NCBI GenBank assembly: GCA_963702845.1
Contig: OY969763.1
Location: forward strand, 5,184,001 to 5,248,000
Origin: an uncultured Verrucomicrobiae bacterium
Lineage (GTDB): Bacteria > Verrucomicrobiota > Verrucomicrobiia > Limisphaerales > Palsa-1400
Reading direction: 5' to 3'
Length of the DNA: 64,000 bases
Shown here piece by piece: positions 39,307 through 64,000 of this stretch. Position 1 is the stretch's first letter, and every line of letters starts with the position of its first letter. The notes under the pieces were generated by a model. It made no database searches. It saw only the letters and a program-made list of their open reading frames with translations, and was not told where the DNA came from. The translations under genes were made by a program, and so were the position numbers.

Positions 39307-39720
39307 CTAGCGTTTCTTGCCGCGTTTGGCGGCTTTGGCCGGGCGAGATGCTTTCGCAGCTTTGTCCGACTTGACGTTGGCGGCGCGCACGAGGGCGCGG
39401 AAGCCGCGCACGAGCGGTTCACGGACCATCGCCGGGATTTCGCGCAACTCTTCCACCAGATCGCGCTCCCACTGTTCAGGGAACGCCATGCGATGCGTGC
39501 GGCGGGCCTGGACGGAGTCCGGGTTATCGCGCAGCAAGAGCAGCTTGAAGAGACGCAGGGTGACCGCGCTGGGGCGGACGGGGGAGTTTTCGCGAACAAT
39601 CTGGCTGAGCGCGCTGGGCGTCATGCCTAATTGACGGGACGCTTCAGCCTGCGACCAACCGGACGCAGCGAGCAATTCACGGAACTCTTGTTTAGGATCG
39701 ATTTCAGTTTGTTGTGCCAT
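39307..39720 (-). CDS. XRE-family HTH regulator (phage repressor-like)
   Basis: FRELLAASGWSQAEASRQLGMTPSALSQIV...RPS; divergent from a Xis-like gene across an AT-rich spacer. Confidence 0.8.
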   Translation of the reverse strand: MAQQTEIDPKQEFRELLAASGWSQAEASRQLGMTPSALSQIVRENSPVRPSAVTLRLFKLLLLRDNPDSVQARRTHRMAFPEQWERDLVEELREIPAMVREPLVRGFRALVRAANVKSDKAAKASRPAKAAKRGKKR

Positions 39721-39831
39721 ATGTATTAAATGTTAAATGATTACACTTTCAGTTGACTAGTGAAGTAACTTACTGTAATAACTACAGAGAATAAAAAATA
39801 GGCACAGATTTGCAACACTAAAAGGACTGAT
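39721..39831. promoter_or_regulatory. AT-rich divergent control region
   Basis: TTGACT (39753) N17 TAATAA (39776); palindromes AGTAACTTACT and TGTA-N5-TACA. Confidence 0.5.
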
Positions 39832-40245
39832 ATGAAGTCACATTATGAAATGACCGGCCGGGGAACGACCCGGCAAATGAGCGCAATTCGACCGGCGCGC
39901 TCGGCCACGCACACGATTAAACCAGCCGCTACGAGGGTGAATATGCCGTCCAGCGCAGCTTTGCGGGTGCCGGCGCTGGCGGCTTGCGGCGGGCTGGATG
40001 TTTGGATCACGCCCGCCCAGGCGCGCAAGATTCTTGGGATCGCCCCTTCGGCGATTTATCGGCTGGTGGACCCGACCCGGCCATTGCTCGTTGTGAAGCG
40101 GCCATTGCGCCGGAAGATTTTGATCAGCTTGCGATCGGTGACGGCATTTTCTGAAGCGACGAAAAACCCGGACTTCTGGGAATCGGCACCGTTGCAGGCG
40201 CAGTTTGACGCAAAACTAAAAGCAATCAGCGAACACAAAGGGTGA
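39832..40245 (+). CDS. Excisionase/MerR-like winged-helix (HTH_17) DNA-binding protein
   Basis: WITPAQARKILGIAPSAIYRLV followed by a basic wing KRPLRRKILISLRSV. Confidence 0.65.
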   Translation: MKSHYEMTGRGTTRQMSAIRPARSATHTIKPAATRVNMPSSAALRVPALAACGGLDVWITPAQARKILGIAPSAIYRLVDPTRPLLVVKRPLRRKILISLRSVTAFSEATKNPDFWESAPLQAQFDAKLKAISEHKG

Positions 40246-40351
40246 AGGCGTCGTAGGTCAGCCTGTTACAGGACGCGATTGACTGGTTGCGTCACGAAGG
40301 GACGGTTGAAAACACCGCACGTCCAGGTCAGCCGCCCCTTCGGGACTCATC

Positions 40352-40581
40352 ACATGGCGTAGCCATGTTTGAAGGTAGCCGTGGGTTTCAACCCACGGAA
40401 TCGCGCCCGAGCAAAACGTGTTGCGTCGCGTAGCGACGCTTCAACCTGTCCATTGGATTGTAATTATCGCGCGACGCATGAAACGCCGGTTCACGTGCCG
40501 CTAACGGCACAATCATCCTTCAGCCCGCCTCACCCGTGGGTTGAAACTCTCGGCTACCTTCAAGAATCGCTAACGCGATTC
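40352..40581. repeat. REP/REPIN-like element, family A
   Basis: ACATGGCGTAGCCATGTTTGAAGGTAGCCGTGGGTTTCAACCCACGG ... GGCTACCTTCAAGAATCGCTAACGCGATT, shared with the 36976 copy. Confidence 0.85.
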
Positions 40582-40764
40582 GCCTCTGGAACGGCGTGAC
40601 CAGATTCATCTTGACCGAAACCGAAGTGAGCGCAGACTCGAACTACTGTCAATTCAAACCACTGGGAGCACAAACCCGGCGAGAAAGGTCACATGGAAAA
40701 CACATCTCGAACACGGTTCTTCAGTAACTCTGCTATTTTTCAACACCACCCTCAAGCAAGTGTC

Positions 40765-41442
40765 ATGAAAACGGCTCTAGTGGCCTTCGTTCTATTTGTT
40801 GCGACGGCGGTGCACTCGTGCGCGCAAGGTTCGTTTCAAAATCTTTTTTTTGAGAATGCCACCATTGTTCCGGACGGATCTTCGCCCCATTTGATAAACG
40901 CTGATGCTGCTTTGCCGGGTTGGTCCGTTTCCTATGGTTCGGGCCCTGGTGGGGTCAACATTATCTATAATGACTTTAATTTGTCGTACGCTGCTGTTGG
41001 GCTTCACGACCCAAGTTCAACTATTACTCACCCATTACAGGGAAACTATTCCGTAATGCTTCAAAGTTCTCAGTATCCGTTTCCCGCCGATTCAGCTTCA
41101 ATTTCGCAGACAGGTCTGGTGCCGCTTGGAACGAAGTCCCTTGTCTTCATGGGGCAGGGTACTCCGGGCAATTTTCAAGTCTCCCTGGGAGGTCAGACAC
41201 TCAGTTTGACGCCTTTAAGCACCACGTCATCCTATACACTATGGGGGGCGGATATTTCATGGGCTGCAGGAACAACAGCGCCATTACAATTTACTGTTAA
41301 TGGGTCGCAATTTTCGACGCTGCTTCTGGACGGCATCCAGTTTTCAACCACGCCGGCACCTGAACCATCGGTCTTCGTCCTGCTTGCAGTCGGCGCAGGG
41401 CTGTTCAGGGTACGGCGTCAGCGGTCGCAATCAGTCCGGTAG
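40765..41442 (+). CDS. PEP-CTERM sorting-domain protein
   Basis: Signal peptide; C-terminal APEPS, TM segment, then RRQR. Confidence 0.88.
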   Translation: MKTALVAFVLFVATAVHSCAQGSFQNLFFENATIVPDGSSPHLINADAALPGWSVSYGSGPGGVNIIYNDFNLSYAAVGLHDPSSTITHPLQGNYSVMLQSSQYPFPADSASISQTGLVPLGTKSLVFMGQGTPGNFQVSLGGQTLSLTPLSTTSSYTLWGADISWAAGTTAPLQFTVNGSQFSTLLLDGIQFSTTPAPEPSVFVLLAVGAGLFRVRRQRSQSVR

Positions 41443-41545
41443 TCCGAGTCCGAGTCCGAGTCCGGTATTCTAAAGGAATACCGGACTACCGGACCGGCTA
41501 TTCCGGAAATGCATTTTCGGAATTATCGGACTGGTTTTCCGATTC
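41433..41545. repeat. Iteron-like AGTCCG array around a palindrome at the 3' end of the helicase gene (candidate replication origin)
   Basis: AGTCCG at 41433, 41441, 41447, 41453 and 41459; palindrome AGTCCGGTATTC-taaag-GAATACCGGACT (41459-41487); further TCCG/CGGA half-sites into the gene end. Confidence 0.6.
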
Positions 41546-42982
41546 CTCGTAAAACCATTGACCTTCTAAGGTTTGCTTCAGATTTGGATGTTGCCGCGCT
41601 TCTTCCAAAACCGCGTAAAATTGTGTCTTGGAAATGCCTATTTCCGAACTGGCGATCATACACCACGTTTTCGTGCTGAGTTTCTGCCCTTTCAGACATC
41701 CAATGATCTTTTCCACTGTGAACCGCTTTTTCCGTCCGGGTTTTTGTTTCAATCGGCCTGTATTCAAATTCTCATCCCTCCGCATCAACGGATAAATCCA
41801 CCGCACCACAAACGCCTCGATCGGCTTGAAATTCCTCAACGTCGCTTCGACCGTGAACGCGTCCTCCGCTTCGTGGCGGGTGAAGCTCAGGATGCTGTCG
41901 GGGTCGCGCGCGAAGACGCCGCTGCCGCTGATGCGGTCGATCGCTTCTTTGCCGGCCGCGTTGCCTTTGGCGTAATGCGCGCCAAATGCCACCGCCGCTC
42001 CCGTCGACACCGCCAGATGCTCGATCGCGTTCAACAACATCGCCACCTGACCGGCGGAATTTTCGTCGGTGCCACCGTAACATTTGTAAATCGGGTCCAA
42101 GATAATCAGGGCGTAACTGGACGTTTTGATGCGCTCCAGAATCTTCGGGAACAACACGTCATAACTGGCCGCCTGCCCGCGCAGGTTCCACAAATCGACG
42201 TCGCCGGGCTTGAGCGTGATGTTCTTGGACTGGGCAATCGCGCGCATGCGCTTGTGAAATTCGTGCTCAGCCAGCTCGAAGTTGAGGTAAAGCACCTTCC
42301 CTTTGCCGGTCTTAAATGACAACCAGGGCTCGCCGCACGCCACGGACAGCGCGAGGTCGGTCAGCGTCCACGTCTTGAACGTCTTGGAGCCGCCGCCAAG
42401 CACCAGTTTGCTGCCCTGATGCAAAAGGCCATAGACGACCTCGCGCGGCGCGGGCTGTTCGGCTTTGAGAAAAGCGCAGGCGTCCTTGATTTCCGGCAGA
42501 CCTTTGCGGTTGTTGGTTAAGGCAATGGCCTGTTGCAAATCGCTCTGCAACGTGGCGAGCGGTTCGAGGAGATCGTGGGCGCGCGATTCGAGGCAGGCGG
42601 TTTGTTTGAGCAATTCGCGGCGGGCGCGCAACTCGTGCAGCTCCGCGACGTATTGCTCAAACATCAGAGCCGACCCATCCATGCCGATGATGTAACTAAA
42701 ACCGCCGACATCTTCCAGCATGCCCTCGGCCTTGAGCCGCTCGACCAGCGTCAAAGTGTCGGGCGCTTTGCCGTCTTTGACGAGCGCATGGATGGCGTTG
42801 AAAATGCGTTGGTGGCGAAGGTCGTAAAAAGAAAGGCGCGTGATGCCGAGCCGTTCGATCTGCGGGGCGAGGCCGGGCGAGGTGATGAGACACCCCAGCA
42901 CCTGCGCCTCGATCTCCACCGAGTGCGGCGGCAATCTGGGCGATTGCTCAGCCTTTTTTGCAGTAAATTCATTCGTTGTCAT
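41498..42982 (-). CDS. DnaB N-terminal domain fused to a RepA-like AAA_25 (RecA-fold) helicase
   Basis: PPHSVEIEAQVLG..FYDLRHQRIFNAI (DnaB-N); Walker A GGGSKTFKT; LYLNFE; Walker B IILDPIY; ISGSGVFARDPD. Confidence 0.85.
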   Translation of the reverse strand: MTTNEFTAKKAEQSPRLPPHSVEIEAQVLGCLITSPGLAPQIERLGITRLSFYDLRHQRIFNAIHALVKDGKAPDTLTLVERLKAEGMLEDVGGFSYIIGMDGSALMFEQYVAELHELRARRELLKQTACLESRAHDLLEPLATLQSDLQQAIALTNNRKGLPEIKDACAFLKAEQPAPREVVYGLLHQGSKLVLGGGSKTFKTWTLTDLALSVACGEPWLSFKTGKGKVLYLNFELAEHEFHKRMRAIAQSKNITLKPGDVDLWNLRGQAASYDVLFPKILERIKTSSYALIILDPIYKCYGGTDENSAGQVAMLLNAIEHLAVSTGAAVAFGAHYAKGNAAGKEAIDRISGSGVFARDPDSILSFTRHEAEDAFTVEATLRNFKPIEAFVVRWIYPLMRRDENLNTGRLKQKPGRKKRFTVEKIIGCLKGQKLSTKTWCMIASSEIGISKTQFYAVLEEARQHPNLKQTLEGQWFYEESENQSDNSENAFPE

Positions 42983-43014
42983 ACGCCAGCGTTTTAGCGT
43001 ATGAAGGGATTACT

Positions 43015-43112
43015 CGTCAAAAACTGTAGGAAAAGGAGGGAAACCAGGGAAAGAAACAGCACTTTTTCCCGACAAAATGGGGTGGTTTTGTGCGGTTGGC
43101 ATGAATTTTGAG
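43015..43112 (-). promoter_or_regulatory. 98-bp conserved element, copy A (upstream of the helicase gene)
   Basis: Reverse complement: ctcaaaattcatgcca...aaaaagtgctgtttc tttccctgg tttccctcc ttttcctac agtttttgacg. Confidence 0.85.
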
Positions 43113-43570: not shown

Positions 43571-44704
43571 ATGAAAATAAATTTTTGCGTACTGGCCCTG
43601 CTCCTTTGCACCGTTGGCTGTAAAGGGAAGCACCGCGTTGCTACGCCGCCTCCGCCAATTGTGGAAGTCGCGCCCGTGACACAAGCCGACGTTCCGGTTT
43701 ATCACGATTGGATCGGCGTTATCGACGGGTTTGTGAATGCACGCATCCGAGCTCAAGTGCCGGGTTATTTGATTTCGCAGAATTATCGTGAAGGTGATCC
43801 AATCAAGAAAGGTGACGTTTTATTTGAAATAGACCGCAGGCCATTTCAAGCAACACTCGACCAAGCCAAGGGGCTTCTCGCGCAAGCCGAAGCAAAACTT
43901 GGCAAAACGGAACTCGACGTCAAACGCTATGCACCATTGCTCAAGGACAAGGCAATCAGCCGGGAGGAATACGATGACGCGGTCCAGGCCAATCTCGAAG
44001 CACAGGCAGCGGTCGCGTCAGCGAAAGCAGCAGTCGAGCAGGCGCAAGTGAATCTGGGGTTTACGCGCATCGAATCTCCAATCGATGGAATTGCGAGTAT
44101 TGCAAATGGACAAATCGGCGATTTGGTCGGGCCCAACACGACTGATTTGACGACGGTCTCAACAGTCGACCCAATCAAAGTCTATTACAACGTTACTGAG
44201 CAGGCTTATATCAATTTCACGAAGCTTTTCACCAGCGAGAGCAATAGATACGAGAGACTGCGAAAACTGGAAATCGAACTTCTTTTGGCCGATGGCTCTG
44301 TTTACCCGTTGAAGGGCAGAATCTATGCGGTTGATCGTCAAGTCAGCCCCACCACCGGAGCGCTTCGAATAGCCGCACTTTTCCCGAATCCTAATTACGC
44401 TTTGCGTCCCGGCCAATTCGGTCGTGTTCGGGTGAAATTCGAGCTTGCGAGCGGCGCACTACTGGTGCCGCAAAAGGCGGTCTCGGAATTGCAAGGCGCT
44501 TTCCAGGTGGCGGTATTGAATTCAAATAACACCGTGCACATCCAGCCGGTCCATCTTGGCGAACGCGTGGGCACACAGTGGATCGTGAAGGACGGAGTGC
44601 ATTTGGGCGATCGCGTCATTGTTGAAGGAACACAGAAAGTGCGTGAAGGCTCGGCCGTTACTGTGACAAACGCGCCGGCTCAGCTTAATTCCGCACCCCA
44701 TTGA
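43571..44704 (+). CDS. RND efflux periplasmic adaptor (MFP) lipoprotein
   Basis: Lipobox TVGC; IRAQVPGYL, IESPIDG, LRPGQF. Confidence 0.9.
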   Translation: MKINFCVLALLLCTVGCKGKHRVATPPPPIVEVAPVTQADVPVYHDWIGVIDGFVNARIRAQVPGYLISQNYREGDPIKKGDVLFEIDRRPFQATLDQAKGLLAQAEAKLGKTELDVKRYAPLLKDKAISREEYDDAVQANLEAQAAVASAKAAVEQAQVNLGFTRIESPIDGIASIANGQIGDLVGPNTTDLTTVSTVDPIKVYYNVTEQAYINFTKLFTSESNRYERLRKLEIELLLADGSVYPLKGRIYAVDRQVSPTTGALRIAALFPNPNYALRPGQFGRVRVKFELASGALLVPQKAVSELQGAFQVAVLNSNNTVHIQPVHLGERVGTQWIVKDGVHLGDRVIVEGTQKVREGSAVTVTNAPAQLNSAPH

Positions 44705-44709
44705 TCCGA

Positions 44710-47700
44710 ATGTCCAAATTCTTCATCAATCGACCAATCGTTGCCATCGTGATCTCAATCATCATGGTTGTCGTTGGGCTTGTTACTCTTTTCGGATTGC
44801 CAGTGGCGCAGTTCCCGAAGGTTGTTCCGCCGGAAATTTTTATCCAGGCAAACTACGTCGGCGCAGATGCGGAGACTATCGAGCAGTCGGTCGCGACACC
44901 CATCGAGCAGCAGATGAGCGGCGTCGACAACATGAATTACATGTATTCGATCAACGCGAACAACGGGTTGATGCGGATGTTCGTCAATTTTGACCTCAAG
45001 ACAGATCCGAACATTGACCACGTTCTACACAGCTGCGCTACGCCCAGGCCGAATCGCAATTGCCTGCAGACGTGCGCAATTTTGGTGTCACGGTCCAGAA
45101 GTCTCTTTCCGCGCCACTCATGCTGGTTGCGCTTAATTCTCCGAATCAAACACGCGACGCGCAGTTCCTGGCCAACTACGCGTATATCAATCTTTCCGAT
45201 CCTCTAAGCCGTCTGCCTGGCATCTCTCAAGTGCAAATATTCGGTGCGGGCCAATATGCGATGCGTATTTGGGTGAAGCCGGATCAGTTGTCGAAGTTAA
45301 ACATAACCGTTCCGGAAATCATCAGTGCAGTTGGAAGTCAGAACACGGTGAATCCCGCCGGCAAACTTGGTGGACGTCCGTCTCCACCAGGTCAGCAGTT
45401 TACGTATTCCGTGCGCGCGCAAGGCCGCCTCGTTACAGAGGAGGATTTCGGCAACATCGTGGTGCGAGCGACTGCTGACGGGGCAATTGTTCGGGTGAAG
45501 GACGTAGCGCGCATAGAACTTGGAGCCGCAGATTACGATATTTATGGTCGTTATAATAGGAAACCGAGCGCGGTTCTCGCGCTGTATCAATTACCAGGAT
45601 CAAATGCCATCGAGGCGGCCAAAGGCGTCGAGCGGCTGATGGCTGAATTGAAAGAACGATTCCCATCCGATCTCGATTATCAAATCTCGATTGATACGAC
45701 CCAGGAAGTCACAGAAGGCATTCGGGAAATCGGCGTAACTTTTTGGGAAGCGCTCGCACTCGTCATGGTGGTTGTTTTCATTTTTCTGCAAGGCTGGCGC
45801 GCGGCACTTATTCCTCTGGCGGCTGTTCCGGTGTCGTTGATAGGAACGTTTGCGGTTTTTCCGATATTGGGATTCTCGATCAATACCTTGTCTCTGTTCG
45901 GCCTGGTTCTCGCGATCGGATTGGTGGTTGACGACGCGATCGTTGTTGTTGAAGCCGTCGAGCATCACATCGAAGAGGGCATGTCGCCGAAGCAAGCCAC
46001 CTTGAAAGCAATGGAGGAAGTTTCAGGCCCTGTCGTTGCGATTGCTCTTATTCTCTCCGCCGTGTTCCTTCCAACGGTATTCATCCCCGGCATTACGGGG
46101 CGGTTGTATCAGCAGTTTGCGGTTACCACTGCTATATCGGTGCTGATTTCTGCGTTCAATGCATTGTCATTGAGTCCGGCTCTGGCGGCGTTGCTGTTGA
46201 AGCCCAAGCGTGAAAGCAAGGGGCCAATCGGCAAATTCTTCGACCTGTTTAATCGTGGGTATCGTAAGGTTACTGACGGCTACATTGGGCTTTGCCGTGT
46301 CCTCATTCACAAATCTGTCTTCGCTCTTCTGTTTCTCGGAATCATTGCAGCAGCCACGGGTTTGTTTGGCAAAAAGCTGCCTACAGGATTTCTGCCCGAA
46401 GAAGATCACGGATACTTGTATGTTAACGTGCAGCTTCCGTTCGCTGCTTCATTGGACCGCACAGTGGACGTTTGCAATCAGGTTGAAACAATAGTTCTCG
46501 CTATTCCCGGCGTAAAAAGTTGCACGACTGTGGCAGGGTTCAGTCTTTTAAGTTTTTCACGCAATACCTACAGCGCGTCATTGTGGATCGCATTGAAAGA
46601 CTGGAATGAACGAAAGACTGCGGCGGAAAGTTACGAATCTATCAAAGCCACCCTGACCAAAAAATTGTCTCAAGTTCCGGGCGCGATCGCGTTTGCGTTT
46701 CCACCTCCAGCCATTCAAGGCGTTGGCACAGCCGGCGGGTTCACATTTGTTTTGGAAGATCGGTCGGGCAAAGACATTCCGTTTCTTGCCGCTAACGTCT
46801 CAAAGTTCATGGAAGCGGCACGAAAGCGTCCGGAAATCGCGAGCATCACAACCACCTTTCTTCCTGTCGTGCCGCAACTTTACGTGGATGTTGACCGAGA
46901 CAAGACGCTGAAACAAGGCGTCGAACTGACCGAGGTCTATAAGACGCTGCAGACATTTATGGGCGGCTATTTCGTCGATTATTTCAATCGTTTCGGCCGC
47001 CAGTGGCAGGTCTACATCGAGGCCGAAGGTGACTATCGCACACGCGCTGAAAACCTGGGTTTATTTTACGTCCGCAATCACGCTGGTGAAGCTGTTCCTC
47101 TCGCGGCACTCACATCAACCAAGACCATCTCCGGACCAGAATTTACAATGCGCTACAATCTTTATCGAAGTGCACAGATTAATGGTTCCTCTGCGCCGGG
47201 CTACAGCTCCGCGCAGGCAACGAAGGCCCTCGAGGAAGTGTTCGCCCAGACGATGCCACCCGAAATGGGTTTTGATTACCTTGGCATATCGTTCCAGGAG
47301 CAAAAGGCCCAGCAAGGAGTCTCGCCCGTCGCGATCTTCGGTCTCTCATTTTTCTTCGTCTTTCTGATTCTGGCCGCACTTTATGAAAGTTGGAGTTTAC
47401 CGTTCAGCGTCCTGCTGGGCACGCCTATCGCTGTGTTCGGTGCGTTTGCGGCGCTGTGGATTCGTGGAATGGTGAACGACGTCTTTGCGCAGATCGGATT
47501 GGTAATGTTGATCGGCCTGGCTGCCAAGAACGCCATCCTCATCGTCGAATTCGCACGGCTGGAATACGAAAAAGGCCAGCCGCTGATCGATAGCGCACTT
47601 ACTGCGGCGCGAATTCGTTTGCGCCCCATTCTGATGACTTCTTTTGCCTTCATTCTCGGAACTGTTCCCCTTTCGATCGCAACCGGGGCTGGTGGAGTGT

Positions 47701-47888
47701 CGCGGCGTGTTATCGGCACAGTGGTAATCGGAGGCATGTTGGCCGCGACTTTAATCGCCGTCTGTTTGATTCCCGTGACGTTTTATGTAGTGGAAAAATT
47801 TTCGAGTCGTTTCAAACGCACGACCACAAGTGACTCGGAACGACCATCGGACGGAGGAGTAACACCTTCAGTGGGAACTAATGAATGA
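44710..47888 (+). CDS. HAE1-family RND efflux transporter (1-nt frameshift near 45028)
   Basis: MSKFFINRPIVA; GLVVDDAIVVVE; GLAAKNAILIVEFA; RLRPILMTS. Frames join as IDHVL-x-QLRYAQAESQLP. Confidence 0.9.
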
Positions 47889-54970: not shown

Positions 54971-55070
54971 ACATGGCGTAGCCATGTTTGAAGGTAGCCG
55001 TGGGTTTCAACCCATGGGAAGGTGTAAAAACTAACAGTATCTGTGTCGCGTAGCGACACGTCAACCGGCG
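54971..55070. repeat. Half copy of REP family A
   Basis: ACATGGCGTAGCCATGTTTGAAGGTAGCCGTGGGTTTCAACCCA...TGTGTCGCGTAGCGACACG. Confidence 0.8.
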
Positions 55071-55623: not shown

Positions 55624-55737
55624 GTTTCCCTTTCGTTGTTAAACGGCCTGGACGACCGCACGATAATAGCCAACCGCCCGACGTTGTCAATCGCACCTAT
55701 GGCGTAATCGGGTGTCAGATAATTACCCACAAGCCAC

Positions 55738-55835
55738 GTCAGGTTACGTGCCACACCATCAAAAACCGCACATTTTTGTGGAAAAAAGTGCTGTTTCTTT
55801 CCCTCCTCTCCCTCCTTTCCCTACATTTTTTGACG
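55738..55835 (+). promoter_or_regulatory. 98-bp conserved element, copy B (upstream of protease-capsid)
   Basis: gtcaggttacgtgcca...aaaaaagtgctgtttc tttccctcc tctccctcc tttccctac attttttgacg. Confidence 0.85.
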
Positions 55836-55878
55836 GTGTAGCAATTTAATACAAACTCCCCCACGTGCATGAAGCACC

Positions 55879-55977
55879 TGTCGCCCCCCGCCGTGAGGAG
55901 GCACTGAATGAAGAAAATTCGAAGCACGAAGCTCGAAATTCGAAACTTGGAAGAAGCCTCCTCACGACGGCGGCACA
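55879..55977. repeat. REP-like inverted repeat enclosing 7-mer tandem repeats
   Basis: CCGCCGTGAGGAGGC ... GCCTCCTCACGACGGCGG; inner aaattcg aagcacg aagctcg aaattcg. Confidence 0.7.
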
Positions 55978-55998
55978 GAAACCGAAAGAACAAAAGAT

Positions 55999-56733
55999 AT
56001 GAACGAAATTTTAGAACGAGAATTTGGATCGCGCTTAATCAACCTGCGCAACGGCGCGCGCGGCCTGCGCGAAGGCCTCCACGTCCGCACCAGCATCCCC
56101 AAAGACGCCGGCAGCGAACCGGTCGTCGACTTCATCAGCTCCGATGAATCGCTCGATCGCTACAACGAAGTCATCAGCGCCTCCGGCTGGGTGCTCGATC
56201 CCTATTTGAAAAACCCGGTGTTCCAGGACTCGCACGATTACTCCACCATCCTGCGCACCATCGGCAAAGCCAGCGTCACCCAGGTGCGCGATGGAAAACT
56301 CTTTCAACGCATTCACTTCGCCGTCAACGCGAACCCGTTGGCCAAGATCGCCCACGCACTTTACAAAGGCGGTTTTCTCAACGCCGTCTCTGTCGGCTTC
56401 GTGCCCTTGAAATGGCAAAATGGCGATAGCGCCACCGGCTTTTCGCGCCGATACACCAAACAAGTTTTGCTCGAAACCAGCGCCGTCGCCATTCCCGCCA
56501 ATCCCAACGCCTTGCAACTGGCCTACGATTCCGGCGCGGTCGAGAAAAGCGACCTTCGTGAACTCCACCAGCTTCTGAGCGCCGTGGCTTCCGAAGCTCA
56601 TCACACGTCACTCGCCAATAATCACTTTCCGTCGGCAGCTCCACGTTCCAACACCAGCGCTTTGGGAACGTCCAGCGATGAAGCGCAGCAGTTAGTCAAC
56701 CTGATGAAACAAGCCGCGGCACTGTGCCGATAG
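55999..56733 (+). CDS. HK97-family phage prohead protease
   Basis: SSDESLDRYNEVI..SGW, NPVFQDSH, IGK, GFLNAVSVGF, LLETSAVAIPANPNA. Confidence 0.88.
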   Translation: MNEILEREFGSRLINLRNGARGLREGLHVRTSIPKDAGSEPVVDFISSDESLDRYNEVISASGWVLDPYLKNPVFQDSHDYSTILRTIGKASVTQVRDGKLFQRIHFAVNANPLAKIAHALYKGGFLNAVSVGFVPLKWQNGDSATGFSRRYTKQVLLETSAVAIPANPNALQLAYDSGAVEKSDLRELHQLLSAVASEAHHTSLANNHFPSAAPRSNTSALGTSSDEAQQLVNLMKQAAALCR

Positions 56734-56750
56734 GCCTGAACCATCAACCC

Positions 56751-56887
56751 GTAGCGCAGGTTTCCAAACCTGCTGTATCGCAGGCCTCCGAGCCTGCGGG
56801 GCGTAGGAACTTCGCAACGTTTGCGAACCACCGACGCGCTGCCGATTTGGAAATCGGCGATACAGCAGACTTGGAAGTCTGCGATAC
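56751..56887. repeat. GTAG-type REPIN-like element
   Basis: GTAGCGCAGGTTTCCAAACCTGCTGTATCGC ... GCGATACAGCAGACTTGGAAGTCTGCGATAC, inverted. Confidence 0.8.
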
Positions 56888-56926
56888 GAAACAGAACCGA
56901 ACCAAAAACAAAGAAAGAAGAAAAAT

Positions 56927-58174
56927 ATGAACACAGAAATCACAACTCAGCCGCTTGAGGAAATGAAGTCCCTCCTGCAACAAATCCAATGGGCCAATCG
57001 CGAACTGGTTAAAGATTACCAGAGCGCGTCCACCGAAATCAAAACCCTCGGCGCTTCACACCAGAAGCTCTCGACCGATTTCGCCGAAGCCCAGAAACAC
57101 CTCGAACAACTCCGCCGCGGCACACTCGGCGCGACCAGTTCACGCCTCGCGCACCAGGCCGTCAGCGACGATTGCGCGCGTTACATCGCGGCAGCCGTCG
57201 TGTGCGGCGCGGACGCCATCGGTGGCCTCAACCACATCAAAGGCGCGCAACGCGACAGCCTTGTCGGCGAATGCAAAAACGTTCTCGGCCTCGAAACCCG
57301 CTCCGCATTGACCACGAGCGATATTCCGTTGCCGACGATGTATTCGCAGCAAGTCGTCGAACTCGTTTGGAAATACGGCCAGGCGCGCCAATTCGCCACC
57401 GTCTATCCACTCGGCCAGGGCACCACGAAGTTGCCGCAGTTGAAGACCAGCCCGAGCTTTGGCTTCATCTCCCAAAGCGCGAGCATCACGGAAAAATCGC
57501 CGCAGATTCAATTCGTGACCTTCAACCCGCAAAAAGCCGGCGGCCTCGTGCGCATCCCCTCCGAGATCGACGCCGACAGCATCGTCCCGCTCGGCCAATT
57601 CCTGGCGCGTTACATCGCCCGTGAAATGGCGCGCTGGGAAGACAGCGTGTTGTTCCTTGCCGACGGCACTGGCACTTACAACAGCCTCAAAGGCGTTGGC
57701 CAGACCGCCATCGACAACGCGTTCGCCTTGCAATTGGCCACGAGCAAAACCAAACCGACCGACATCACGGTGAACGACGTGCGCAACCTGCGCGCGAAAG
57801 TGAACTCGGCCGCGTTGTTCAGTGGCGCATACTACTTCCATCCCACGATGGAAGCGTTGCTGCGCTCCTTCAACAGCGGTGCCAACCCGCCGTTCGTCGT
57901 GAACGCGAATGGCCAGGCCACGTTCGAAGGCTTCCCCGTCCGCTGGGTCGGCGTGTTGCCCGTCTACGACGGCAACGCCCACGCGTCCCAGGTGCAGGGT
58001 GCTTTCGGTGACCTGAGCTACTGGTACTTCGGCGAACGTTCGTCCGTCTCGATGGACGTTTCCCGCGAAGTCTACTTCGCGACCGACGAACTGGCCGTGC
58101 GCGCCCTTGAGCGTTTCACCGTGCAGCTGATGGCCAACGACGCCGTCGCTGCGTTGCAATTAGCCGCGAGTTAA
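56927..58174 (+). CDS. HK97-fold major capsid protein
   Basis: Coiled-coil delta-like N-terminus; PTMYSQQVVEL, EIDADS, LADGTG..KG, G.PV, FGDLSYW, RALERF; follows the protease. Confidence 0.88.
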   Translation: MNTEITTQPLEEMKSLLQQIQWANRELVKDYQSASTEIKTLGASHQKLSTDFAEAQKHLEQLRRGTLGATSSRLAHQAVSDDCARYIAAAVVCGADAIGGLNHIKGAQRDSLVGECKNVLGLETRSALTTSDIPLPTMYSQQVVELVWKYGQARQFATVYPLGQGTTKLPQLKTSPSFGFISQSASITEKSPQIQFVTFNPQKAGGLVRIPSEIDADSIVPLGQFLARYIAREMARWEDSVLFLADGTGTYNSLKGVGQTAIDNAFALQLATSKTKPTDITVNDVRNLRAKVNSAALFSGAYYFHPTMEALLRSFNSGANPPFVVNANGQATFEGFPVRWVGVLPVYDGNAHASQVQGAFGDLSYWYFGERSSVSMDVSREVYFATDELAVRALERFTVQLMANDAVAALQLAAS

Positions 58175-58179
58175 ACCAA

Positions 58180-58263
58180 CCGCCACAACCCACCCCCCTC
58201 TCCTCCCAGGGACGACTCGAGATTCTTCTCATGTCGCTGTCGGAGGAGAGGGCAAGTGGGCGG
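58180..58263. repeat. Long hairpin (CCCTCTCC/GGAGAGGG-type REP or terminator) after the capsid gene
   Basis: CCCTCTCCTCC ... GGAGGAGAGGG with outer CCGCC/GGCGG. Confidence 0.55.
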
Positions 58264-58648
58264 AGGAAAAAAATATGAAAATTGAAATCAATTCACCCGT
58301 AAATCGCCACATCGCCCCGACGTGCAACATTTCGCGAAGCGAGAATGACCTACGCAGCACTGCTCATTCCTCAACCCTGAACTCTCAACCCTCAACAAAT
58401 CTTTACCGCCACCGCGCCGTAGTGCGCGCCCGCCGCCGCCGTCGCGGTTTTGGTGGGCCGCTCCGCTGAGCTCTTTCGGAGTGCGGATCGCCGACGTCCG
58501 CAGCAACGTCGGTCGCAACCATCGCGTCAAAAACAATTCGCGCGCCAACACCACATCTTACGTTGCCGCGCCCGCGACGGGCGCACTCCGATAATTACTA
58601 ATCCCTTGATTCCACATCGCACCAAAGACATGGTCATGCGCGACGTTC

Positions 58649-59563
58649 ATGGATAAGCAACGCCAAAACTTGATCGGTGGTGTGCTGCTCGGCACGGCCA
58701 TCGCGATTTTCCTAGAGGTAGTCGGCTACCTTATCGTTCGTGGGGCTCGCGCAGAGTTCGGCTGGGTGATGTTCATTATTGTGCCGTTTGTTTCAGGCTT
58801 TGCCGTTGCCGCCGTCGTGCGACACCCCAAACGGATCCTCGCGTGCTGTATAACCGGCGGCATCATCACGTTCTCACTCATGCTATTTTTAGGATGGGAG
58901 GGCATCATTTGCTGCGCGATATCGTCGCCCTTGGTTGCCTTCGGCGTCTGCGTCGGCGCATTCATGGGCTATAAGGTGCGCGGACGCTTCATCGACAAAC
59001 TTCCAGACCCGGGAAAGACGACGATTTTGTTACTCCCGCTCTGCCTGCTCTTCATCGCAGCCGCGGACCGCGTTGAGCGTCCATTGCGTTCAATCCAGCA
59101 ACACGAAACTTTCACTACCGAGACTATGATCGCAGCTTCGTCGGAGCGCACATGGGATTTGGTCGCGCAAATGCACAAACTCGATGGCCCGCGACCATTC
59201 TTGTTATGGGCCGGCTTGCCAAATCCAACACGGTGCGAGCTGGATCATCCCGGCGTTGGCGGACATCGGGTTTGTTATTTCGATAGCGGGATCATTACAC
59301 AGGAAGTCACCGACTGGCGGCGGCCTGAATTCATGGGCTTGCGGATTACAGAAAGCACCTTGCCCGGGCGGCACTGGCTCACTTTCATCAACGCCAGTTA
59401 CGAACTATATCCGGAAGGCGCGAACACAAAAGTGGTGCGCCACACCACCATCGGGACACGACTATATCCACGTTGGTACTGGCGACCTTTGGAAAGATGG
59501 GGCGTCACCTCCGAGCACGAGTTCGTCTTCTCTAATCTGCATAGATGGACAGACGCAAAATGA
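58649..59563 (+). CDS. Membrane protein with C-terminal SRPBCC/START domain
   Basis: Five TM segments (WEGIICC), then IAASSERTWDLV...GVGGHRVCYF...YPRWYW. Confidence 0.7.
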   Translation: MDKQRQNLIGGVLLGTAIAIFLEVVGYLIVRGARAEFGWVMFIIVPFVSGFAVAAVVRHPKRILACCITGGIITFSLMLFLGWEGIICCAISSPLVAFGVCVGAFMGYKVRGRFIDKLPDPGKTTILLLPLCLLFIAAADRVERPLRSIQQHETFTTETMIAASSERTWDLVAQMHKLDGPRPFLLWAGLPNPTRCELDHPGVGGHRVCYFDSGIITQEVTDWRRPEFMGLRITESTLPGRHWLTFINASYELYPEGANTKVVRHTTIGTRLYPRWYWRPLERWGVTSEHEFVFSNLHRWTDAK

Positions 59564-59600
59564 GCGATTGCCCACGTGCCGAACGGCTTCTCAGTTGATG

Positions 59601-60533
59601 ATGAAACCGCTCCACCTCCTCCTCGTCGCGTTCACTATCGCCACCGCGGCGCTCCACGCCGCTGACGAGCCGAAGAAACCGCGCATCGTTGGCGATTGGT
59701 GGCAGGTCGCGGGCGATCCTGATCTCGGGAATCTCACCAATCCAAAACAGCAAACGGTCGACTTCGCCGTCTGGCAGGCCGCCGATGGCGCGTGGCAACT
59801 TTGGTCCTGCATTCGCGGGACGAAAGAGCCGGGCAACACACGCCTCTTTTACCGCTGGGAAAACGCCACGCTTACCGAACCCAATTGGAAACCGACGGGC
59901 ATCGCCATGCGCGCCGACCCAAAGACCGCCGAAGCGCAGGGCGGCTTGCAGGCTCCGTTTGTTTTCCGCGACGGCGCGCGCTTCGTCATGTTTTACGGCG
60001 GCTGGAACGACATCTGTTCCGCGACCAGCACCGACGGAAAAACCTTCGCGCGCATTACAAACGCGCAAGGCAAAGTGACCCTCTTCGGCGCGCCCACCGG
60101 CAACACGCGTGACCCGATGGTCATTCGCATCGGCGCACTCTGGCATTGCTACTACACCGCCCATCCCGAAAACAAAGGCGCAGTCTATTGCCGCACCTCA
60201 TCCGACCTGAAGCACTGGAGCGACCCACACCTCGTCGCCCGCGCCGGCCAATCCGGCGACGGCCCATGGTCATCCGAATGTCCATTCGTCGTCGAACTCG
60301 CCCCGGGCCAGTTCTACCTCTTCCGCAATCAAGTTTACGGTAAGGACGCCCGGTGCAGCGTCTACTACTCGCGCGACCCGTTCGATTTTGGCGTGGCCCA
60401 CGACGAAGGCCACTTCATCTGCACCCTGCCTTTGGCCGCACCGGAAATAATCCATCAGGGAAACGAATGGTTCATCGCCTCACTCCTCCCCTCGCTCAAA
60501 GGCATCCGAATCGCCCGGCTCGCGTGGGAATAA
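59601..60533 (+). CDS. Secreted five-bladed beta-propeller glycosidase (GH32/43-like)
   Basis: Signal peptide; LQAPFV, RDPMV, SECPFV, APEII. Confidence 0.7.
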   Translation: MKPLHLLLVAFTIATAALHAADEPKKPRIVGDWWQVAGDPDLGNLTNPKQQTVDFAVWQAADGAWQLWSCIRGTKEPGNTRLFYRWENATLTEPNWKPTGIAMRADPKTAEAQGGLQAPFVFRDGARFVMFYGGWNDICSATSTDGKTFARITNAQGKVTLFGAPTGNTRDPMVIRIGALWHCYYTAHPENKGAVYCRTSSDLKHWSDPHLVARAGQSGDGPWSSECPFVVELAPGQFYLFRNQVYGKDARCSVYYSRDPFDFGVAHDEGHFICTLPLAAPEIIHQGNEWFIASLLPSLKGIRIARLAWE

Positions 60534-60592
60534 CGGGATCTGATCATGGCTACGTCATGGACCAAAACGTGCGCCACAAACCCTTCCCTTAC

Positions 60593-60943
60593 TTACTGAA
60601 CTTTAAGTTCGCTTCTTTGCCCGTCTTGCGTCGTCACCCATGCCTTGGAGAGATGCCATTCGGACAGCTTGCTGCCTTTGACGAAGTGATAGGTGTAACA
60701 GGACGGATCATCGCCTCTCATCACAAAAATATTCCGCGTGCAGGGATAAGTGATACGGTCGAACATCTGCGAGCCTTCCATGTGAATGTCACCACCTTCA
60801 CCAGGAGGCAACCCCGGCAGTTTACCGGCATCCTCCATCTCCACAAAAACCCGCGCTAAATCTTTTTGGACATTATTTGTGGCACATGAAACAAAGAGCC
60901 AACAGGTCGCTAATACGAATACGGTCTGAATTGTTCTACGCAT
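60593..60943 (-). CDS. Hypothetical lipoprotein
   Basis: LFVSC lipobox; AT-richer codon use. Confidence 0.55.
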   Translation of the reverse strand: MRRTIQTVFVLATCWLFVSCATNNVQKDLARVFVEMEDAGKLPGLPPGEGGDIHMEGSQMFDRITYPCTRNIFVMRGDDPSCYTYHFVKGSKLSEWHLSKAWVTTQDGQRSELKVQ

Positions 60944-61043
60944 AAGAAATCGTTTACCTCGTTTGGACTATCCAACCACCGAGCTTAACACTAGCGATAC
61001 CAACAAACAATCCCTCAGCTGGCTAAAACCTGCCTTTTAGCCA

Positions 61044-61141
61044 CTCAAGAACCATGCCACCCGTCTGAAAACGCCACATTTCGTCATAAAAAGGTGCTGT
61101 TTCTTTCCCTGGCTTCCCTCCTTTCCCTACATTTTTTGACG
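61044..61141 (+). promoter_or_regulatory. 98-bp conserved element, copy C (upstream of adaptor-portal-terminase)
   Basis: ctcaagaaccatgcca...aaaaaggtgctgtttc tttccctgg cttccctcc tttccctac attttttgacg. Confidence 0.85.
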
Positions 61142-61258
61142 GAGTAGTCGCTTCTTGTCAGCATCGCAGCGTGACGGCAAAGAGCCGGCCTGGCGGCTGG
61201 GCTTTGAAAAACACGCCGATTGGCATCCGTCCGCAATTTGAAAACGAAAGAGCTACTT

Positions 61259-61837
61259 ATGCTGACTCAATTATCCACTGTAAAAACCCGCCTCAACGTC
61301 ACCGACACAAGCTTCGACGGCCCCCTGGCCAACGCCATCGCTGGTTTCAGCGAACGGTTTGAGCGCGAGTGCAATCGCAAATTCGCCCGCCAGGTCAATG
61401 CCATCGAAGAATTCTCCGCCGACCAAATCGAGATCTGTCCCGTCTCGTGGCCGATCGAATCGGTCGGGTCGTTCGATTTGAAAACGAAGGAAAGCGACGG
61501 ATGGCAACCGGTCACGCCGACGCCGGATTATTTGATTCGGAGCAATTGCGTGATTTCGCTGGAGACCGCCACCGGCTCGCGCTTCCAACAGGCGCGCGTC
61601 ACTTACACTGGCGGTTACGTGCTTCCGGGAACGACGCCGGGCACGGGGCAAACGCCGTTGCCGAGTGACCTCGAGCAGGCGTGCGTCGAACAAGTCGTTT
61701 ACTGGTATCAAAACCGCACGACCCTGGGCTTTCTCACTGCAACCGTCGGTCCCGGCACGCATCTCGTTCAAGGCGATTTGCTGCCGGGCGTCGCCGCTGT
61801 CCTCCAGAAATACACCCGCATCAGTTTTGACCAATAA
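61259..61837 (+). CDS. Phage head-tail adaptor (gp6-like; phiE125 gp8 / RcGTA adaptor type)
   Basis: LSTVKTRL...D......I......E..CNR, WPIESV, VTYTGGY, PSDLEQAC...V.YWYQNR, L.KY. Confidence 0.8.
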   Translation: MLTQLSTVKTRLNVTDTSFDGPLANAIAGFSERFERECNRKFARQVNAIEEFSADQIEICPVSWPIESVGSFDLKTKESDGWQPVTPTPDYLIRSNCVISLETATGSRFQQARVTYTGGYVLPGTTPGTGQTPLPSDLEQACVEQVVYWYQNRTTLGFLTATVGPGTHLVQGDLLPGVAAVLQKYTRISFDQ

Positions 61838-61845
61838 ACCAAATC

Positions 61846-61922
61846 GTAGCAGCCGAGGTTACGAGGCTCTGACGTCTGAGCGAATCGACGCGGAAGTTAG
61901 AGCCTCCTCACATCGGCGCTAC
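61846..61922. repeat. GTAG-type REP inverted repeat (same family as 55879)
   Basis: GTAGCAGCCGAGGTTACGAGGCTCT ... AGAGCCTCCTCACATCGGCGCTAC. Confidence 0.75.
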
Positions 61923-61948
61923 AACAACACAAAGAAAGAAAAAATATT

Positions 61949-63751
61949 ATGAAAATTGAAATTCCCTCACTCACAAAATGGTTGGGCAAAAAGTCCCAAA
62001 CGAAAAAGCGCACCGGCGGCTGGACCATCGAAGAATGGCGGCGCGGGGATGACCTCGATCATCCACAAACACGATTCGTCATGCCTTACGCTCAATCGGC
62101 GTGGGTTTACGTGGCGGTGAGCGTGCTCGCGGAAACCGTCGCGCACATTCCGTTTCGCTTTTCGCGCGGACGGCCCAAAGGCGAGGAACTGGTCGAAACC
62201 GGCCCACTGGTGGAACTGTTTCGTCAACCCGCCAGCGGCATCACCCGCACGTTATTTTGGCAAACGCTGGTTTCCTGGGAAGCGTTGCGCGGCGAGTTTT
62301 TCATCGTGCCGCTGGATACTGCTGGCCGCGTGTTGCGTCCGGGTCGCGGCATGTTGCCGAAGCAATTGATGACGCTCAACCCCGATCACATGCAAGAAAT
62401 CGTGCGCAAGAACGAATTGGTCGGCTGGCGTTGCACCGCGCCGGAAGGCTCGTCGCCGATGGGCGCGCTATTGCTCTTGCCGGAAGAGGTCATTCATTCG
62501 CGCAGTTTCAATCCGTATCTCTATTGGCGTGGCATGTCGCCGTTGTCGGTGGCGATGATGGCGGCGGAATCCGATTTCGCAGCGGCTCAGTTCATGAAGG
62601 CGGTGATGGAAAACAACGGTGAGTCCGGCTTGATTGTCACGAGCAGCACCGACCTGCGCGACGATCAAAAGGCGCAAATCCTCGCGCAACTGAGCGCTCG
62701 CCGACGCAACAACACCGCATTGAACAAACCGCTCTTGCTCAACGGCAATTTCACCGTGCAAAAGCCGATGTTGTCCAGCGCCGACATGCAGTTCCTGGAC
62801 AATCGCCGCATGAACCGCGAGGAGATCGGCGCGATCTACAAAGTGCCGGAATCGATGATGGGTTTTGGCGATGAAAAGAGCGGCTTGAGCGCAGGCACGG
62901 CCATGCAGCAGGACCGCTTGAACTTCATCGAGAACACGATCACCGGTTTGCGCCGCCGATTGGAATCGGCACTGGAACCGATCATCCAAAGTTTCGACCC
63001 CGAGTTGCACGGATGGTTCGACATCGAGTCGTTGCCCATCATGCAAACGGCGCGTCGCGATCGTTTGGTCAGTGCTGAGAAGGCGTTCGGGATGGGCGTT
63101 CCCTTCAACGAAATCAACGAATTGTTCGGTCTCGGTTTTCGGCCGATGCCGTGGGGCGGCAAAGGTTTCGTGAATACGAACCTCGTTGAACTCGGTGATC
63201 TCCCCGGAGTGCGGAGTGCGAGGCCGGCGTCCGGCTCCACGTCCGCAGCAAGGTCGTCTGCAACCAGCGCTCCCGGATTATTGAAGAACCCAGAACTCGC
63301 TGTGGGCCGCATGCTCCAACTCGTGGATCAAACAACTCCGAAGGAGTTGCAGCCTTCAGCCCAGGGTTGTCTCGCGCCAAGCGAGACTACCCTGGGTAAC
63401 AAACCCAAAATGTTCGACAACCCTGAAAGGGTTGCGGCAACGAAAGCCCAACAACCAAAGCTTCGCCGGTTCCTCTTCGAACAACGCAATCGGGCGTTGG
63501 CGCAACTGGAACAGGAATTCGGTTTCCTGCACGTGCGCTTTCAACACGGTGAAGAGATTGATCCATTGCTCAACATCGAACGCGAAAACGAATTCCTCTT
63601 CGAACGCCTCGGCCTGGCCGATGGACTTCTCGTCGAAGCAAACGAAAAGCGTTTGTGTGAACTCAACGACGTCGTCCGCAAAGGCCTTGAGGCCGATGAA
63701 GACTTCGCCGAAGTGGCCAACCGCGTGAAACGGATTTTCACCAACAACTAA
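61949..63751 (+). CDS. HK97-type phage portal protein with C-terminal extension
   Basis: WVYVAVSVLAETVA.IP, LRGEFF, EEVIHSR..NP....RGMSPL, DMQFLDNR....EEIGAIYKVP, NEINE.FGL.P..WG. Confidence 0.9.
   Translation: MKIEIPSLTKWLGKKSQTKKRTGGWTIEEWRRGDDLDHPQTRFVMPYAQSAWVYVAVSVLAETVAHIPFRFSRGRPKGEELVETGPLVELFRQPASGITRTLFWQTLVSWEALRGEFFIVPLDTAGRVLRPGRGMLPKQLMTLNPDHMQEIVRKNELVGWRCTAPEGSSPMGALLLLPEEVIHSRSFNPYLYWRGMSPLSVAMMAAESDFAAAQFMKAVMENNGESGLIVTSSTDLRDDQKAQILAQLSARRRNNTALNKPLLLNGNFTVQKPMLSSADMQFLDNRRMNREEIGAIYKVPESMMGFGDEKSGLSAGTAMQQDRLNFIENTITGLRRRLESALEPIIQSFDPELHGWFDIESLPIMQTARRDRLVSAEKAFGMGVPFNEINELFGLGFRPMPWGGKGFVNTNLVELGDLPGVRSARPASGSTSAARSSATSAPGLLKNPELAVGRMLQLVDQTTPKELQPSAQGCLAPSETTLGNKPKMFDNPERVAATKAQQPKLRRFLFEQRNRALAQLEQEFGFLHVRFQHGEEIDPLLNIERENEFLFERLGLADGLLVEANEKRLCELNDVVRKGLEADEDFAEVANRVKRIFTNN
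63333..63435. repeat. Palindromic repeat embedded in frame in the portal ORF
   Basis: CAACTCCGAAGGAGTTG; CCCAGGGT-TGTCTCGC..GCGAGAC-TACCCTGGG; CAACCCTGAAAGGGTTG. Confidence 0.7.
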
Positions 63752-63802
63752 CCACGAGGCACGAGACCACGCCTCGCAACAAAAGAAAGAACAAACGAAA
63801 GT

Positions 63803-64000
63803 ATGAACAATAAAAGAGAAACATTCATCGGGCGGGCCAAGATTGTGCCCGCGTGCAGCGATCATTTTTTGCTGCCGTATCAATACAAATGGGCCACCGA
63901 CTACGCGCGCTTAAAGCTCGCCGTCAAGGCACGCCAAATCGGCTGGACCTGGACGGAAGCGTATTCGCTCGTGCGCCGCAAAGCGCAGAACGGCGCAACC
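63803..64000 (+). CDS. Terminase large subunit, Mu gp28-like, N-terminal part (3'-truncated; absent from the ORF track)
   Basis: Manual translation MNNKRETFIGRAKIVPACSDHFLLPYQYKWATDYARLKLAVKARQIGWTWTEAY...: adenine-binding LLPYQ and Walker A KARQIGWT. Confidence 0.8.
   Translation, partial: MNNKRETFIGRAKIVPACSDHFLLPYQYKWATDYARLKLAVKARQIGWTWTEAYSLVRRKAQNGAT

Follow-up and report, generated by a model that had tools for sequence, protein, structure and literature searches.

A tail-less phage head and packaging module, probably retained by selection, in a Verrucomicrobiota chromosome

The window considered here is a 64,000-nucleotide stretch of the chromosome of an uncultured Verrucomicrobiae bacterium (GenBank assembly GCA_963702845.1, contig OY969763.1). 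The genome, referred to as G000, is assembled as one contig (C1) of 6.03 Mb, in which the window occupies positions 5184001-5248000. Near the right end of the window lies a set of genes for building and filling a phage head of the HK97 type. An earlier note on this DNA had proposed a dispersed and domesticated phage-head system, similar to a gene transfer agent (GTA). The reading that we consider probable is that these genes are what is left of a siphovirus-type prophage, namely its half for head assembly and DNA packaging, which is tail-less, grounded (immobile) in the chromosome, inherited vertically and maintained by selection.

The comparisons involve two sister species from the same genus (G001 and G002), two other genera of the same family (G007 and G003), a metagenome contig from a close relative of G000 (L138) and a viral contig from IMG/VR (L123). 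Gene families were called by Pfam and PHROGs. The capsid was searched for in 41 genomes, namely G000 and 40 relatives, and gave 11 matches; the family-level counts for the large terminase and the capsid refer to 24 genomes of the host family. Coordinates past window position 64000 are extrapolated from the window numbering.

Head and packaging genes at the locus

The module spans positions 55999-63751 in the window and extends to about 67.2 kb, past the window end. It runs in the order prohead protease, capsid, adaptor, portal, large terminase (TerL), the cellular gene gcvH and, on the opposite strand, a trio of genes of which one resembles a small terminase (TerS) (Table 1). The family set of an HK97-type head is thus complete, with PF05065, PF04586, PF04860, Terminase_6N/6C and PF05135 all present. 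Pfam and PHROGs confirm the protease, capsid, adaptor and portal genes that the earlier note had recognised from the letters, as well as an XRE-type regulator and a helicase farther to the left. It was also right in seeing the phage genes interleaved with cellular ones, which by Pfam include an RND pump, RmuC, RidA, a PAS hybrid histidine kinase, a zinc-ribbon protein, a response regulator, and SRPBCC-like and GH32-like open reading frames (ORFs). The GC content at third codon positions (GC3) of the head genes is 0.69-0.78, similar to that of the adjacent host genes.

The protease keeps the motifs DSHDYS and SVGF, with their conserved His and Ser, as in phage homologues; it is 59-64% identical in G007 and G003 and 86% identical in L138. 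The capsid family is present in a single copy in the G000 genome. Between the capsid and the adaptor, a small ORF on the opposite strand has a lipobox-like N-terminus; it has no family match in Pfam or PHROGs, and a counterpart with 56% identity is found at the equivalent site of G002. The adaptor is 72-74% identical in G001 and G002, and the portal is 74% identical in G002. The portal is without the C-terminal head-morphogenesis domain of about 200 residues that is found in its phage relatives, where the portals of L123 and another related locus, L133, measure 758-783 aa.

The inverted trio comprises orf130 (TerS-like), orf139 and orf133. The G000 proteins themselves have no Pfam or PHROG match, and the ESM Atlas clusters to which orf133 and orf139 are weakly similar (0.85-0.89) are viral and hypothetical, no more than leads. 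In the viral contig L123, homologues of orf139 and orf130 immediately precede a TerL with 70% identity to the G000 one, and the orf130 homologue there matches phrog_426, the terminase small subunit. In G007, orf133, orf139, orf130 and TerL follow each other in this order on one strand. Judged by these two neighbourhoods, the inverted trio belongs to the phage gene set.

Table 1. Positions of the module genes, repeat copies and left-hand blocks (window numbering)
Feature	Position	Strand	Remarks
XRE-type HTH	39307..39720	-	Pfam
HTH_17 ('Xis/AlpA-like') ORF	39832..40245	+	weak, E 0.003, below Pfam cut-off
DnaB_N + AAA_25 replicative helicase, mobile-element type	41498..42982	-	Pfam/PHROGs
Repeat copy	43003..43088	-	upstream of helicase
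Repeat copy	55782..55841	+	158 bp upstream of protease ORF; also upstream of protease in L138
Prohead serine protease (Peptidase_S78)	55999..56733	+	244 aa, intact; PF04586, phrog_80
HK97-type major capsid protein	56927..58174	+	415 aa, intact; PF05065, phrog_10
G000-specific segment splitting capsid from adaptor	58205..60775		2571 bp; SRPBCC-like and GH32-like ORFs; not part of the phage module
Small lipoprotein-like ORF between capsid and adaptor	60593..60943	-	116 aa; lipobox-like N-terminus read from sequence
Repeat copy	61060..61160	+	60 bp upstream of adaptor ORF; about 70%-identical version at orthologous G002 site
Head-tail adaptor (gp6-like)	61220..61837	+	205 aa, intact; PF05135; phrog_442 over residues 14-200
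Portal protein	61949..63751	+	600 aa, intact; PF04860, phrog_12, phrog_2662
Large terminase TerL (Terminase_6N/6C)	63803..65251 (= L001:2803-4251)	+	about 482 codons, runs past window end
gcvH (cellular)	65269..65652	+	directly after TerL
Inverted trio orf130 (TerS-like), orf139, orf133	65653..67216 (= L001:4653-6216)	-	after gcvH
Repeat copy, fourth	67249..67322	-	precedes TerS trio; G002 version at orthologous site C348:2808-2920

Gene order and missing functions in the light of related phages

Siphovirus-type phages in IMG/VR and prophages in Verrucomicrobiota metagenome-assembled genomes (MAGs), represented by L123, L133 and L021, possess homologous TerS, TerL (at most 70% identity, in L123), portal, protease, capsid (41-57%) and adaptor genes. 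Fifteen viral contigs carry a capsid that is 41-49% identical to that of G000, and none exceeds 49%. Of the loci that lie outside the chromosomal clade and contain a portal as well as a capsid gene, 14 out of 14 have the canonical order, (TerS-TerL-)portal-protease-capsid(-adaptor); these are viral contigs or MAG loci, some near-identical to one another. The non-canonical order pointed out in the earlier note is thereby substantiated. The related phages and prophages also continue into neck and tail functions (Neck1, tail terminator, tail and tape measure), as in L133, which has Neck1, tail terminator, minor tail and tape-measure genes after the adaptor. The G000 module, in contrast, is rearranged and tail-less. 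It thus holds the gene content of a Caudoviricetes HK97-type head module, but departs from it in gene order and in the lack of neck and tail.

From the first position of the window to a point 37 kb beyond its end, the ORFs that are about 110 aa or longer include no integrase, neck, tail or lysis gene, a range that leaves 56 kb upstream and 37 kb downstream of the module without tail genes. The whole G000 genome was further searched by tblastn (E 1e-4) with the post-adaptor ORFs of five related phage loci, and no neck, tail or tape-measure homologue was detected anywhere. A search for attachment (att) sites gave no direct repeat of at least 13 bp bracketing the module. There is no tRNA within the window; one, a tRNA-Leu, is found 14 kb beyond the module. 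No replication genes adjoin the head genes, and neither an HNH nor a second connector gene was found with Pfam or PHROGs. The absence of integrase, att, lysis and tail genes, which had been noticed within the window, therefore extends to the downstream sequence as well.

Two other explanations of the locus were ruled out at this point. The first is a prophage completed downstream: after TerL, there are only gcvH, the TerS trio and cellular genes as far as 37 kb past the window end. The second is a RapA/tRNA integration hotspot common to G000 and G012, a member of another genus of the family; it fails for want of a tRNA and of synteny.

Inheritance and selection in the host lineage

In the capsid tree, G000, G002, G001, G007 and G003 make up one clade (support 99/99), in which the genus is monophyletic (100/99). 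The terminal branches measure 0.014-0.15 in this host clade as against 0.15-0.58 in the viral contigs. The capsid identity to G000 parallels that of the host protein RmuC, with 90, 89 and 74% for the capsid against 87, 81 and 73% for RmuC in G002, G001 and G003, respectively; the capsid is 75% identical in G007 and 93% identical in L138.

The surroundings of the module are also shared. Two G002 contigs, C209 and C348, are collinear with window positions 56634-67216, save for an extra segment in G000, and hold the order protease-capsid-adaptor-portal-TerL-gcvH-orf130-orf139-orf133. In G001, capsid, adaptor and portal follow one another, and TerL is present too, with gcvH after 1.5 kb. The contig L138 reads RmuC, RidA, zinc ribbon, response regulator, repeat, protease and capsid. 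The earlier note had suggested that congruence with the host phylogeny and synteny be examined; the capsid clade is found to be host-congruent, and the junctions are fixed within the genus. On the evidence of trees and junctions, the module is inherited vertically within one Verrucomicrobiales genus, with the capsid clade mirroring the host taxonomy. The pieces found in two sister genera are possibly inherited too.

The ratio of non-synonymous to synonymous substitution (dN/dS) was estimated pairwise between G000 and G002 or G001, and on the G000 branch with three taxa. For the capsid, the pairwise values are 0.10-0.13, and the branch value is 0.07. The adaptor gives 0.16-0.19 and 0.18, and TerL gives 0.12-0.15 and 0.12. 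The portal has a pairwise value of 0.18 (0.31 for a 159-codon fragment in G001) and a branch value of 0.17, which refers to its N-terminal part. The host gene gcvH has a pairwise value of 0.07. The synonymous divergence (dS) of the capsid, 0.60, is close to the 0.54 of the flanking gcvH. Against G007 and G003, the capsid dN/dS is 0.16-0.18 at a dS of 1.0-1.3. Purifying selection is what these ratios indicate, and the head genes are, by this measure, kept under it at a dN/dS of 0.07-0.19, as a host-maintained system in the sense of the earlier note would be.

Fragmentation of the module

The 2571-bp segment that separates the capsid from the adaptor in G000 is absent from the collinear G002 contig C209, where the head genes are contiguous except for the small opposite-strand lipoprotein ORF. 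The segment is unique in the G000 genome, so a duplication is ruled out as its source. The breakpoint at position 58204, just after the capsid, recurs; it is the left edge of the G000 segment and also the junction in L138, where the DNA that follows corresponds to a region 131 kb away in G000. In G007, protease, capsid, orf110 and adaptor lie between a hybrid kinase and a GDSL-lipase gene, and the TerS trio with TerL, and the portal, are on other contigs. The dispersal described in the earlier note is therefore true in part. In G002, the genes are collinear and contiguous, and most of the dispersal in G000 amounts to a 2.6-kb insertion and gcvH; in G007 and L138, the blocks are indeed separated. 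The head genes stay intact though they are broken into different blocks in G000, G002, L138 and G007.

The dispersed upstream repeat and other packaging loci

A repeat of about 60-100 bp stands before each block of the module. There are 33 copies in G000, each with a same-strand ORF starting no more than 450 bp downstream. Nine copies precede phage-type genes, namely the helicase, protease-capsid, adaptor-portal-TerL, the TerS trio, three TerS-TerL pairs, a weak TerS-like ORF and a GH25 endolysin-type gene. Another 19 precede genes with cellular domains (an atpD-type ATPase, RF-1, ParB, acetyl-CoA synthetase, sulfite reductase and others). As for the remaining copies, four stand before ORFs without a family, and one lay outside the family scan. 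The repeat has no Rfam match.

The G000 copies are about 74-98% identical to the query copy. The orthologous copies in G002 are about 70% identical, and they match G002's own family of 17. By BLAST, the G000 version has no match in G001, G002, G003, G007 or G012; L138 carries the G000 version. A recent element restricted to G000 is ruled out, as the version in G002 occupies orthologous sites (adaptor and orf133) and has 17 matches genome-wide. These patterns point to a gene-facing family that has been homogenised within each species, whether by concerted evolution or by co-evolution with a factor.

The element that the earlier note had observed upstream of three blocks is hence real and has a fourth copy, but the regulatory argument drawn from it does not hold for a repeat with 33 copies and 19 of them before cellular genes. 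A dedicated phage regulon is excluded on the same count. Since the repeat also precedes many housekeeping genes, the head genes appear to be wired like ordinary host genes.

The GH25 gene mentioned above belongs to a small locus of its own, L078 (G000:C1:5059550-5063627). Here, the repeat is followed by the endolysin-type gene (phrog_291), with an unannotated ORF on either side of it (133 and 142 aa). Possibly the locus is a lone lysis cassette.

Apart from the module, packaging genes are plentiful in G000, which has 8 TerL loci, including the module's own, and 13 TerS-like loci. The seven further TerL loci are at C1 positions 2183070, 2303128, 2594999, 2758797, 3497623, 4754298 and 5838385. 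Five of these are full-length ORFs beside a TerS-like gene (Mu gp27 / phrog_426), amid metabolic and other cellular genes. The 2.30-Mb locus has a possible TerS, TerL and a portal, the second one in G000, beside hom-thrC. The TerL family occurs in 20 of the 24 family genomes and the capsid family in 6 of them, four of these being clade members, so the terminase cassettes are independent of the head module.

In G012, a canonical prophage head module of TerL, portal, protease and capsid is present at C4:330500-337500 (L135/L136), with TerL 67% and capsid 24% identical to those of the G000 module. These identities suggest that the TerL family has been exchanged between otherwise unrelated head modules.

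In a true GTA, the head module would work together with tail and lysis genes at other chromosomal sites, and random pieces of host DNA would be packaged and transferred. The vertical inheritance, the purifying selection and the loss of integration and replication functions agree with such a system; so do the blocks scattered among host genes in G007 and L138, and the same repeat before the GH25 endolysin-type gene and three TerS-TerL pairs elsewhere. Nevertheless, no neck, tail or tape-measure homologue turned up near the module or, by tblastn, in the genome. The repeat, being shared with 19 cellular genes, is unspecific, the distribution of TerL does not tie the cassettes to the head, and the TerL of G000 is broken, as described below. 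In a literature search, the titles and abstract openings among the matches listed described no GTA in Verrucomicrobia and no tail-less GTA. A true GTA is, on balance, highly improbable.

Left-hand blocks and neighbouring features

The earlier note had counted the XRE and Xis-like genes and the helicase as parts of the same system, a claim that the comparisons do not uphold. The XRE and HTH_17 proteins are 86% and 58% identical in G002, where the pair has another arrangement, directly upstream of a sigma-54 activator gene. For the helicase, the identity is 63% with G001 and 38-41% with G002 and G003, in relatives whose host genes are 81-92% identical; it has diverged far faster than the head genes. 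The related phage contigs contain no homologue of it. Among the genes in between, RmuC, RidA and the kinase are syntenic host genes in G001 and L138. The sole tie of the left blocks to the head module is one copy of the 33-copy repeat. The helicase is, from these comparisons, probably a separate element, and the XRE and HTH_17 genes are resident regulators.

These blocks matter for another rival explanation, that of a still-mobile satellite similar to a capsid-forming phage-inducible chromosomal island (cf-PICI), in which XRE, HTH_17 and the helicase would be the left arm and tails would come from a helper phage. In gene content, the locus does match the packaging arm of a cf-PICI: TerS-like, TerL, portal, protease, capsid and adaptor genes are present, and tail and holin genes are missing. 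A regulator pair and a replicative helicase, the latter with the same upstream repeat, are found 13-16 kb to the left. However, integrase and att repeats are lacking, as are an HNH gene and a second connector. The 28 kb that run from the regulators to the module's far end include syntenic host genes (RND pump, rmuC, ridA and two-component genes). Moreover, the placement of XRE/HTH_17 elsewhere in G002, the rapid divergence of the helicase relative to the head genes, the fixed chromosomal junctions and the host-congruent tree all speak against mobility. We hold a mobile satellite to be very unlikely.

Some further features of the window were noted in passing. The only Rfam matches between 39 and 64 kb are two to Acido-Lenti-1, at 40353-40398 and 54972-55017 (both on the minus strand), away from the repeat copies; one scores 37.7 bits, above the gathering threshold, and the other 31 bits, below it. 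Their 45-nt cores are identical, and related pieces are present at 36993-37025, 37142-37191 and 40534-40563. The AcrB-type RND gene is split into the overlapping ORFs 44701-45207 and 45060-47888, which lie in different frames and cover profile positions 1-101 and 118-1020; this is either a frameshift or an assembly error. The RND pump operon has a GC3 of 0.52-0.55, below that of its neighbours. Between 19214 and 28878, there are two adjacent giant ORFs of 1400 and 1773 aa, rich in immunoglobulin I-set/Ig_3 domains and RCC1-like repeats.

A retained module or a decaying remnant

Several observations weigh against a retained and inherited module. In G000, TerL is cut by one in-frame TAG at 64139-64141, where G001 and G002 have a Tyr codon; given the low dN/dS of TerL on the G000 branch, the stop would be either very recent or a sequencing error. 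The capsid gene of G003 stops early, at a TAA 16 codons short of the end, and also has a 21-residue N-terminal deletion; this 81%-complete MAG gives no match to portal or TerL. By these signs, at least one lineage is losing the module. Only 5 of the 41 genomes searched have the capsid clade. The G007 and G003 loci have no flanking synteny with the G000 locus, and since no flanking genes are held in common, independent acquisition from one phage lineage is possible for these two; further, the G007 portal is equidistant (55-58% identity) from both G000 portals. The same tblastn search found no helper phage with a matching neck in the G000 genome. A simple scan of the gene-facing strand of the repeat gave no sigma-70 consensus match, so that its orientation alone suggests a promoter role. 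Lastly, the sister genomes are fragmented MAGs, 67-73% complete, in which contiguity was read from contigs of 3-10 kb.

The reading of the earlier note that all the ORFs are intact has thus to be given up, in view of the nonsense codon in the G000 TerL and the early stop in the G003 capsid. Similarly, the terminase block that it had placed up to 64 kb does begin there, at 63803, but the gene ends only at 65251 and carries its TAG beyond the window.

Such defects are what an ordinary prophage remnant would display, one that has no present function, is decaying and has not yet been deleted. The broken TerL, the losses in G003 and the patchy distribution fit this explanation, as do the host-gene insertion and gcvH inside the module and the numerous other remnants of packaging genes in G000. 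On the other hand, five to six ORFs of 200-600 codons have stayed open across a dS of 0.6-1.3, with the low dN/dS ratios given above, the G000 branch included. The catalytic motifs of the protease are retained, and the genes have remained intact despite rearrangements that differ among G000, G002, L138 and G007. A plain remnant is, therefore, judged unlikely, and the module looks more like retained phage machinery than plain debris.

Proposed working of the module and its significance

If the grounded, selection-maintained head module is accepted, a mode of action can be proposed. The intact versions, in G001 and G002 as far as these are assembled, would build portal-bearing proheads, which the protease would mature and the terminase would fill. 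The adaptor, which is of use only for the docking of neck and tail, is also kept under selection. As it is retained with no neck or tail of its own, it can be inferred that the particles would be completed in trans, by tails from a related infecting or resident phage. The logic would be that of a capsid-forming satellite, though one that is fixed in the chromosome with no integrase. In G000, where TerL is freshly truncated, the module may be newly defective or may rely on another TerL locus, five of which look full-length.

A compartment of the encapsulin kind was set aside, as portal, TerL and adaptor are under selection too. A bolder proposal is that the module is the capsid-supplying core of a multi-locus transfer system fixed in the chromosome of Verrucomicrobiales, in which one inherited head set (protease, capsid, portal and adaptor) serves the many TerS-TerL cassettes dispersed over the genome, each packaging its own neighbourhood, with tails stolen from infecting siphoviruses; this would be neither a GTA nor a satellite, and we give it little credence.

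Should the module be functional, it would give Verrucomicrobiota their first reported phage-head system maintained by selection, and would be a rare case of a head-only set fixed with no integrase, standing between prophage debris, capsid-forming satellites and GTAs. The lineage also offers a natural experiment, with a TerL free of stops in the assembled parts of G001 and G002, a nonsense TerL in G000, a dispersed module in G007 and a degenerating one in G003. If it should instead be a slowly decaying remnant, it would serve as a caution that low dN/dS and fragmentation are not sufficient for calling a GTA.

Comparison with known systems

GTAs such as RcGTA, BaGTA, VSH-1 and Dd1 consist of phage-derived structural genes that do not propagate themselves, are passed on vertically under purifying selection and are, in some cases, split over several loci. 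The module shares with them its chromosomal residence with no integration or replication genes of its own, its vertical descent and its purifying selection, the likeness being weaker for the two sister genera. It differs in that no neck, tail or lysis genes are tied to it, no specific common regulator is evident, the TerL of G000 is broken, and it is known here from genes alone. As regards host regulation of the GTA style, all the head blocks carry the gene-facing repeat, which is common to 19 cellular operons and has no sigma-70 match. Thus, from the GTA-like, host-maintained particle system of the earlier note, the host residence, the purifying selection and the lack of mobility genes stand; with neither tail nor regulon, what is left is a resemblance.

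For cf-PICIs, the core set includes their own TerS, TerL, portal, protease, capsid, head-tail adaptor, connector and HNH, with no tail or holin (PMC10085698). Set beside it, the module has a TerS-like gene, a TerL interrupted by a stop, portal, protease, capsid and adaptor; it likewise has no tail or holin, so tails would be needed in trans. Unlike the islands, it has no integrase, att site, adjacent AlpA/MerR regulator or primase-replicase, and neither HNH nor connector was found. It is also fixed in the chromosome with a host-congruent phylogeny, in a rearranged order with host genes inside and with no sign of horizontal spread. The module thus resembles a GTA or a cf-PICI and is, by definition, neither.

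The third kind of system to be compared is the domesticated or grounded prophage, and here the likeness lies in lost mobility, vertical descent and a dN/dS below 1.
Domesticated defective prophages were reportedly described by Bobay, Touchon and Rocha in 2014 as vertically inherited, with a dN/dS well below 1. What sets the present module apart from them is that it retains the head and packaging set alone, intact through lineage-specific rearrangements and genus-level divergence.

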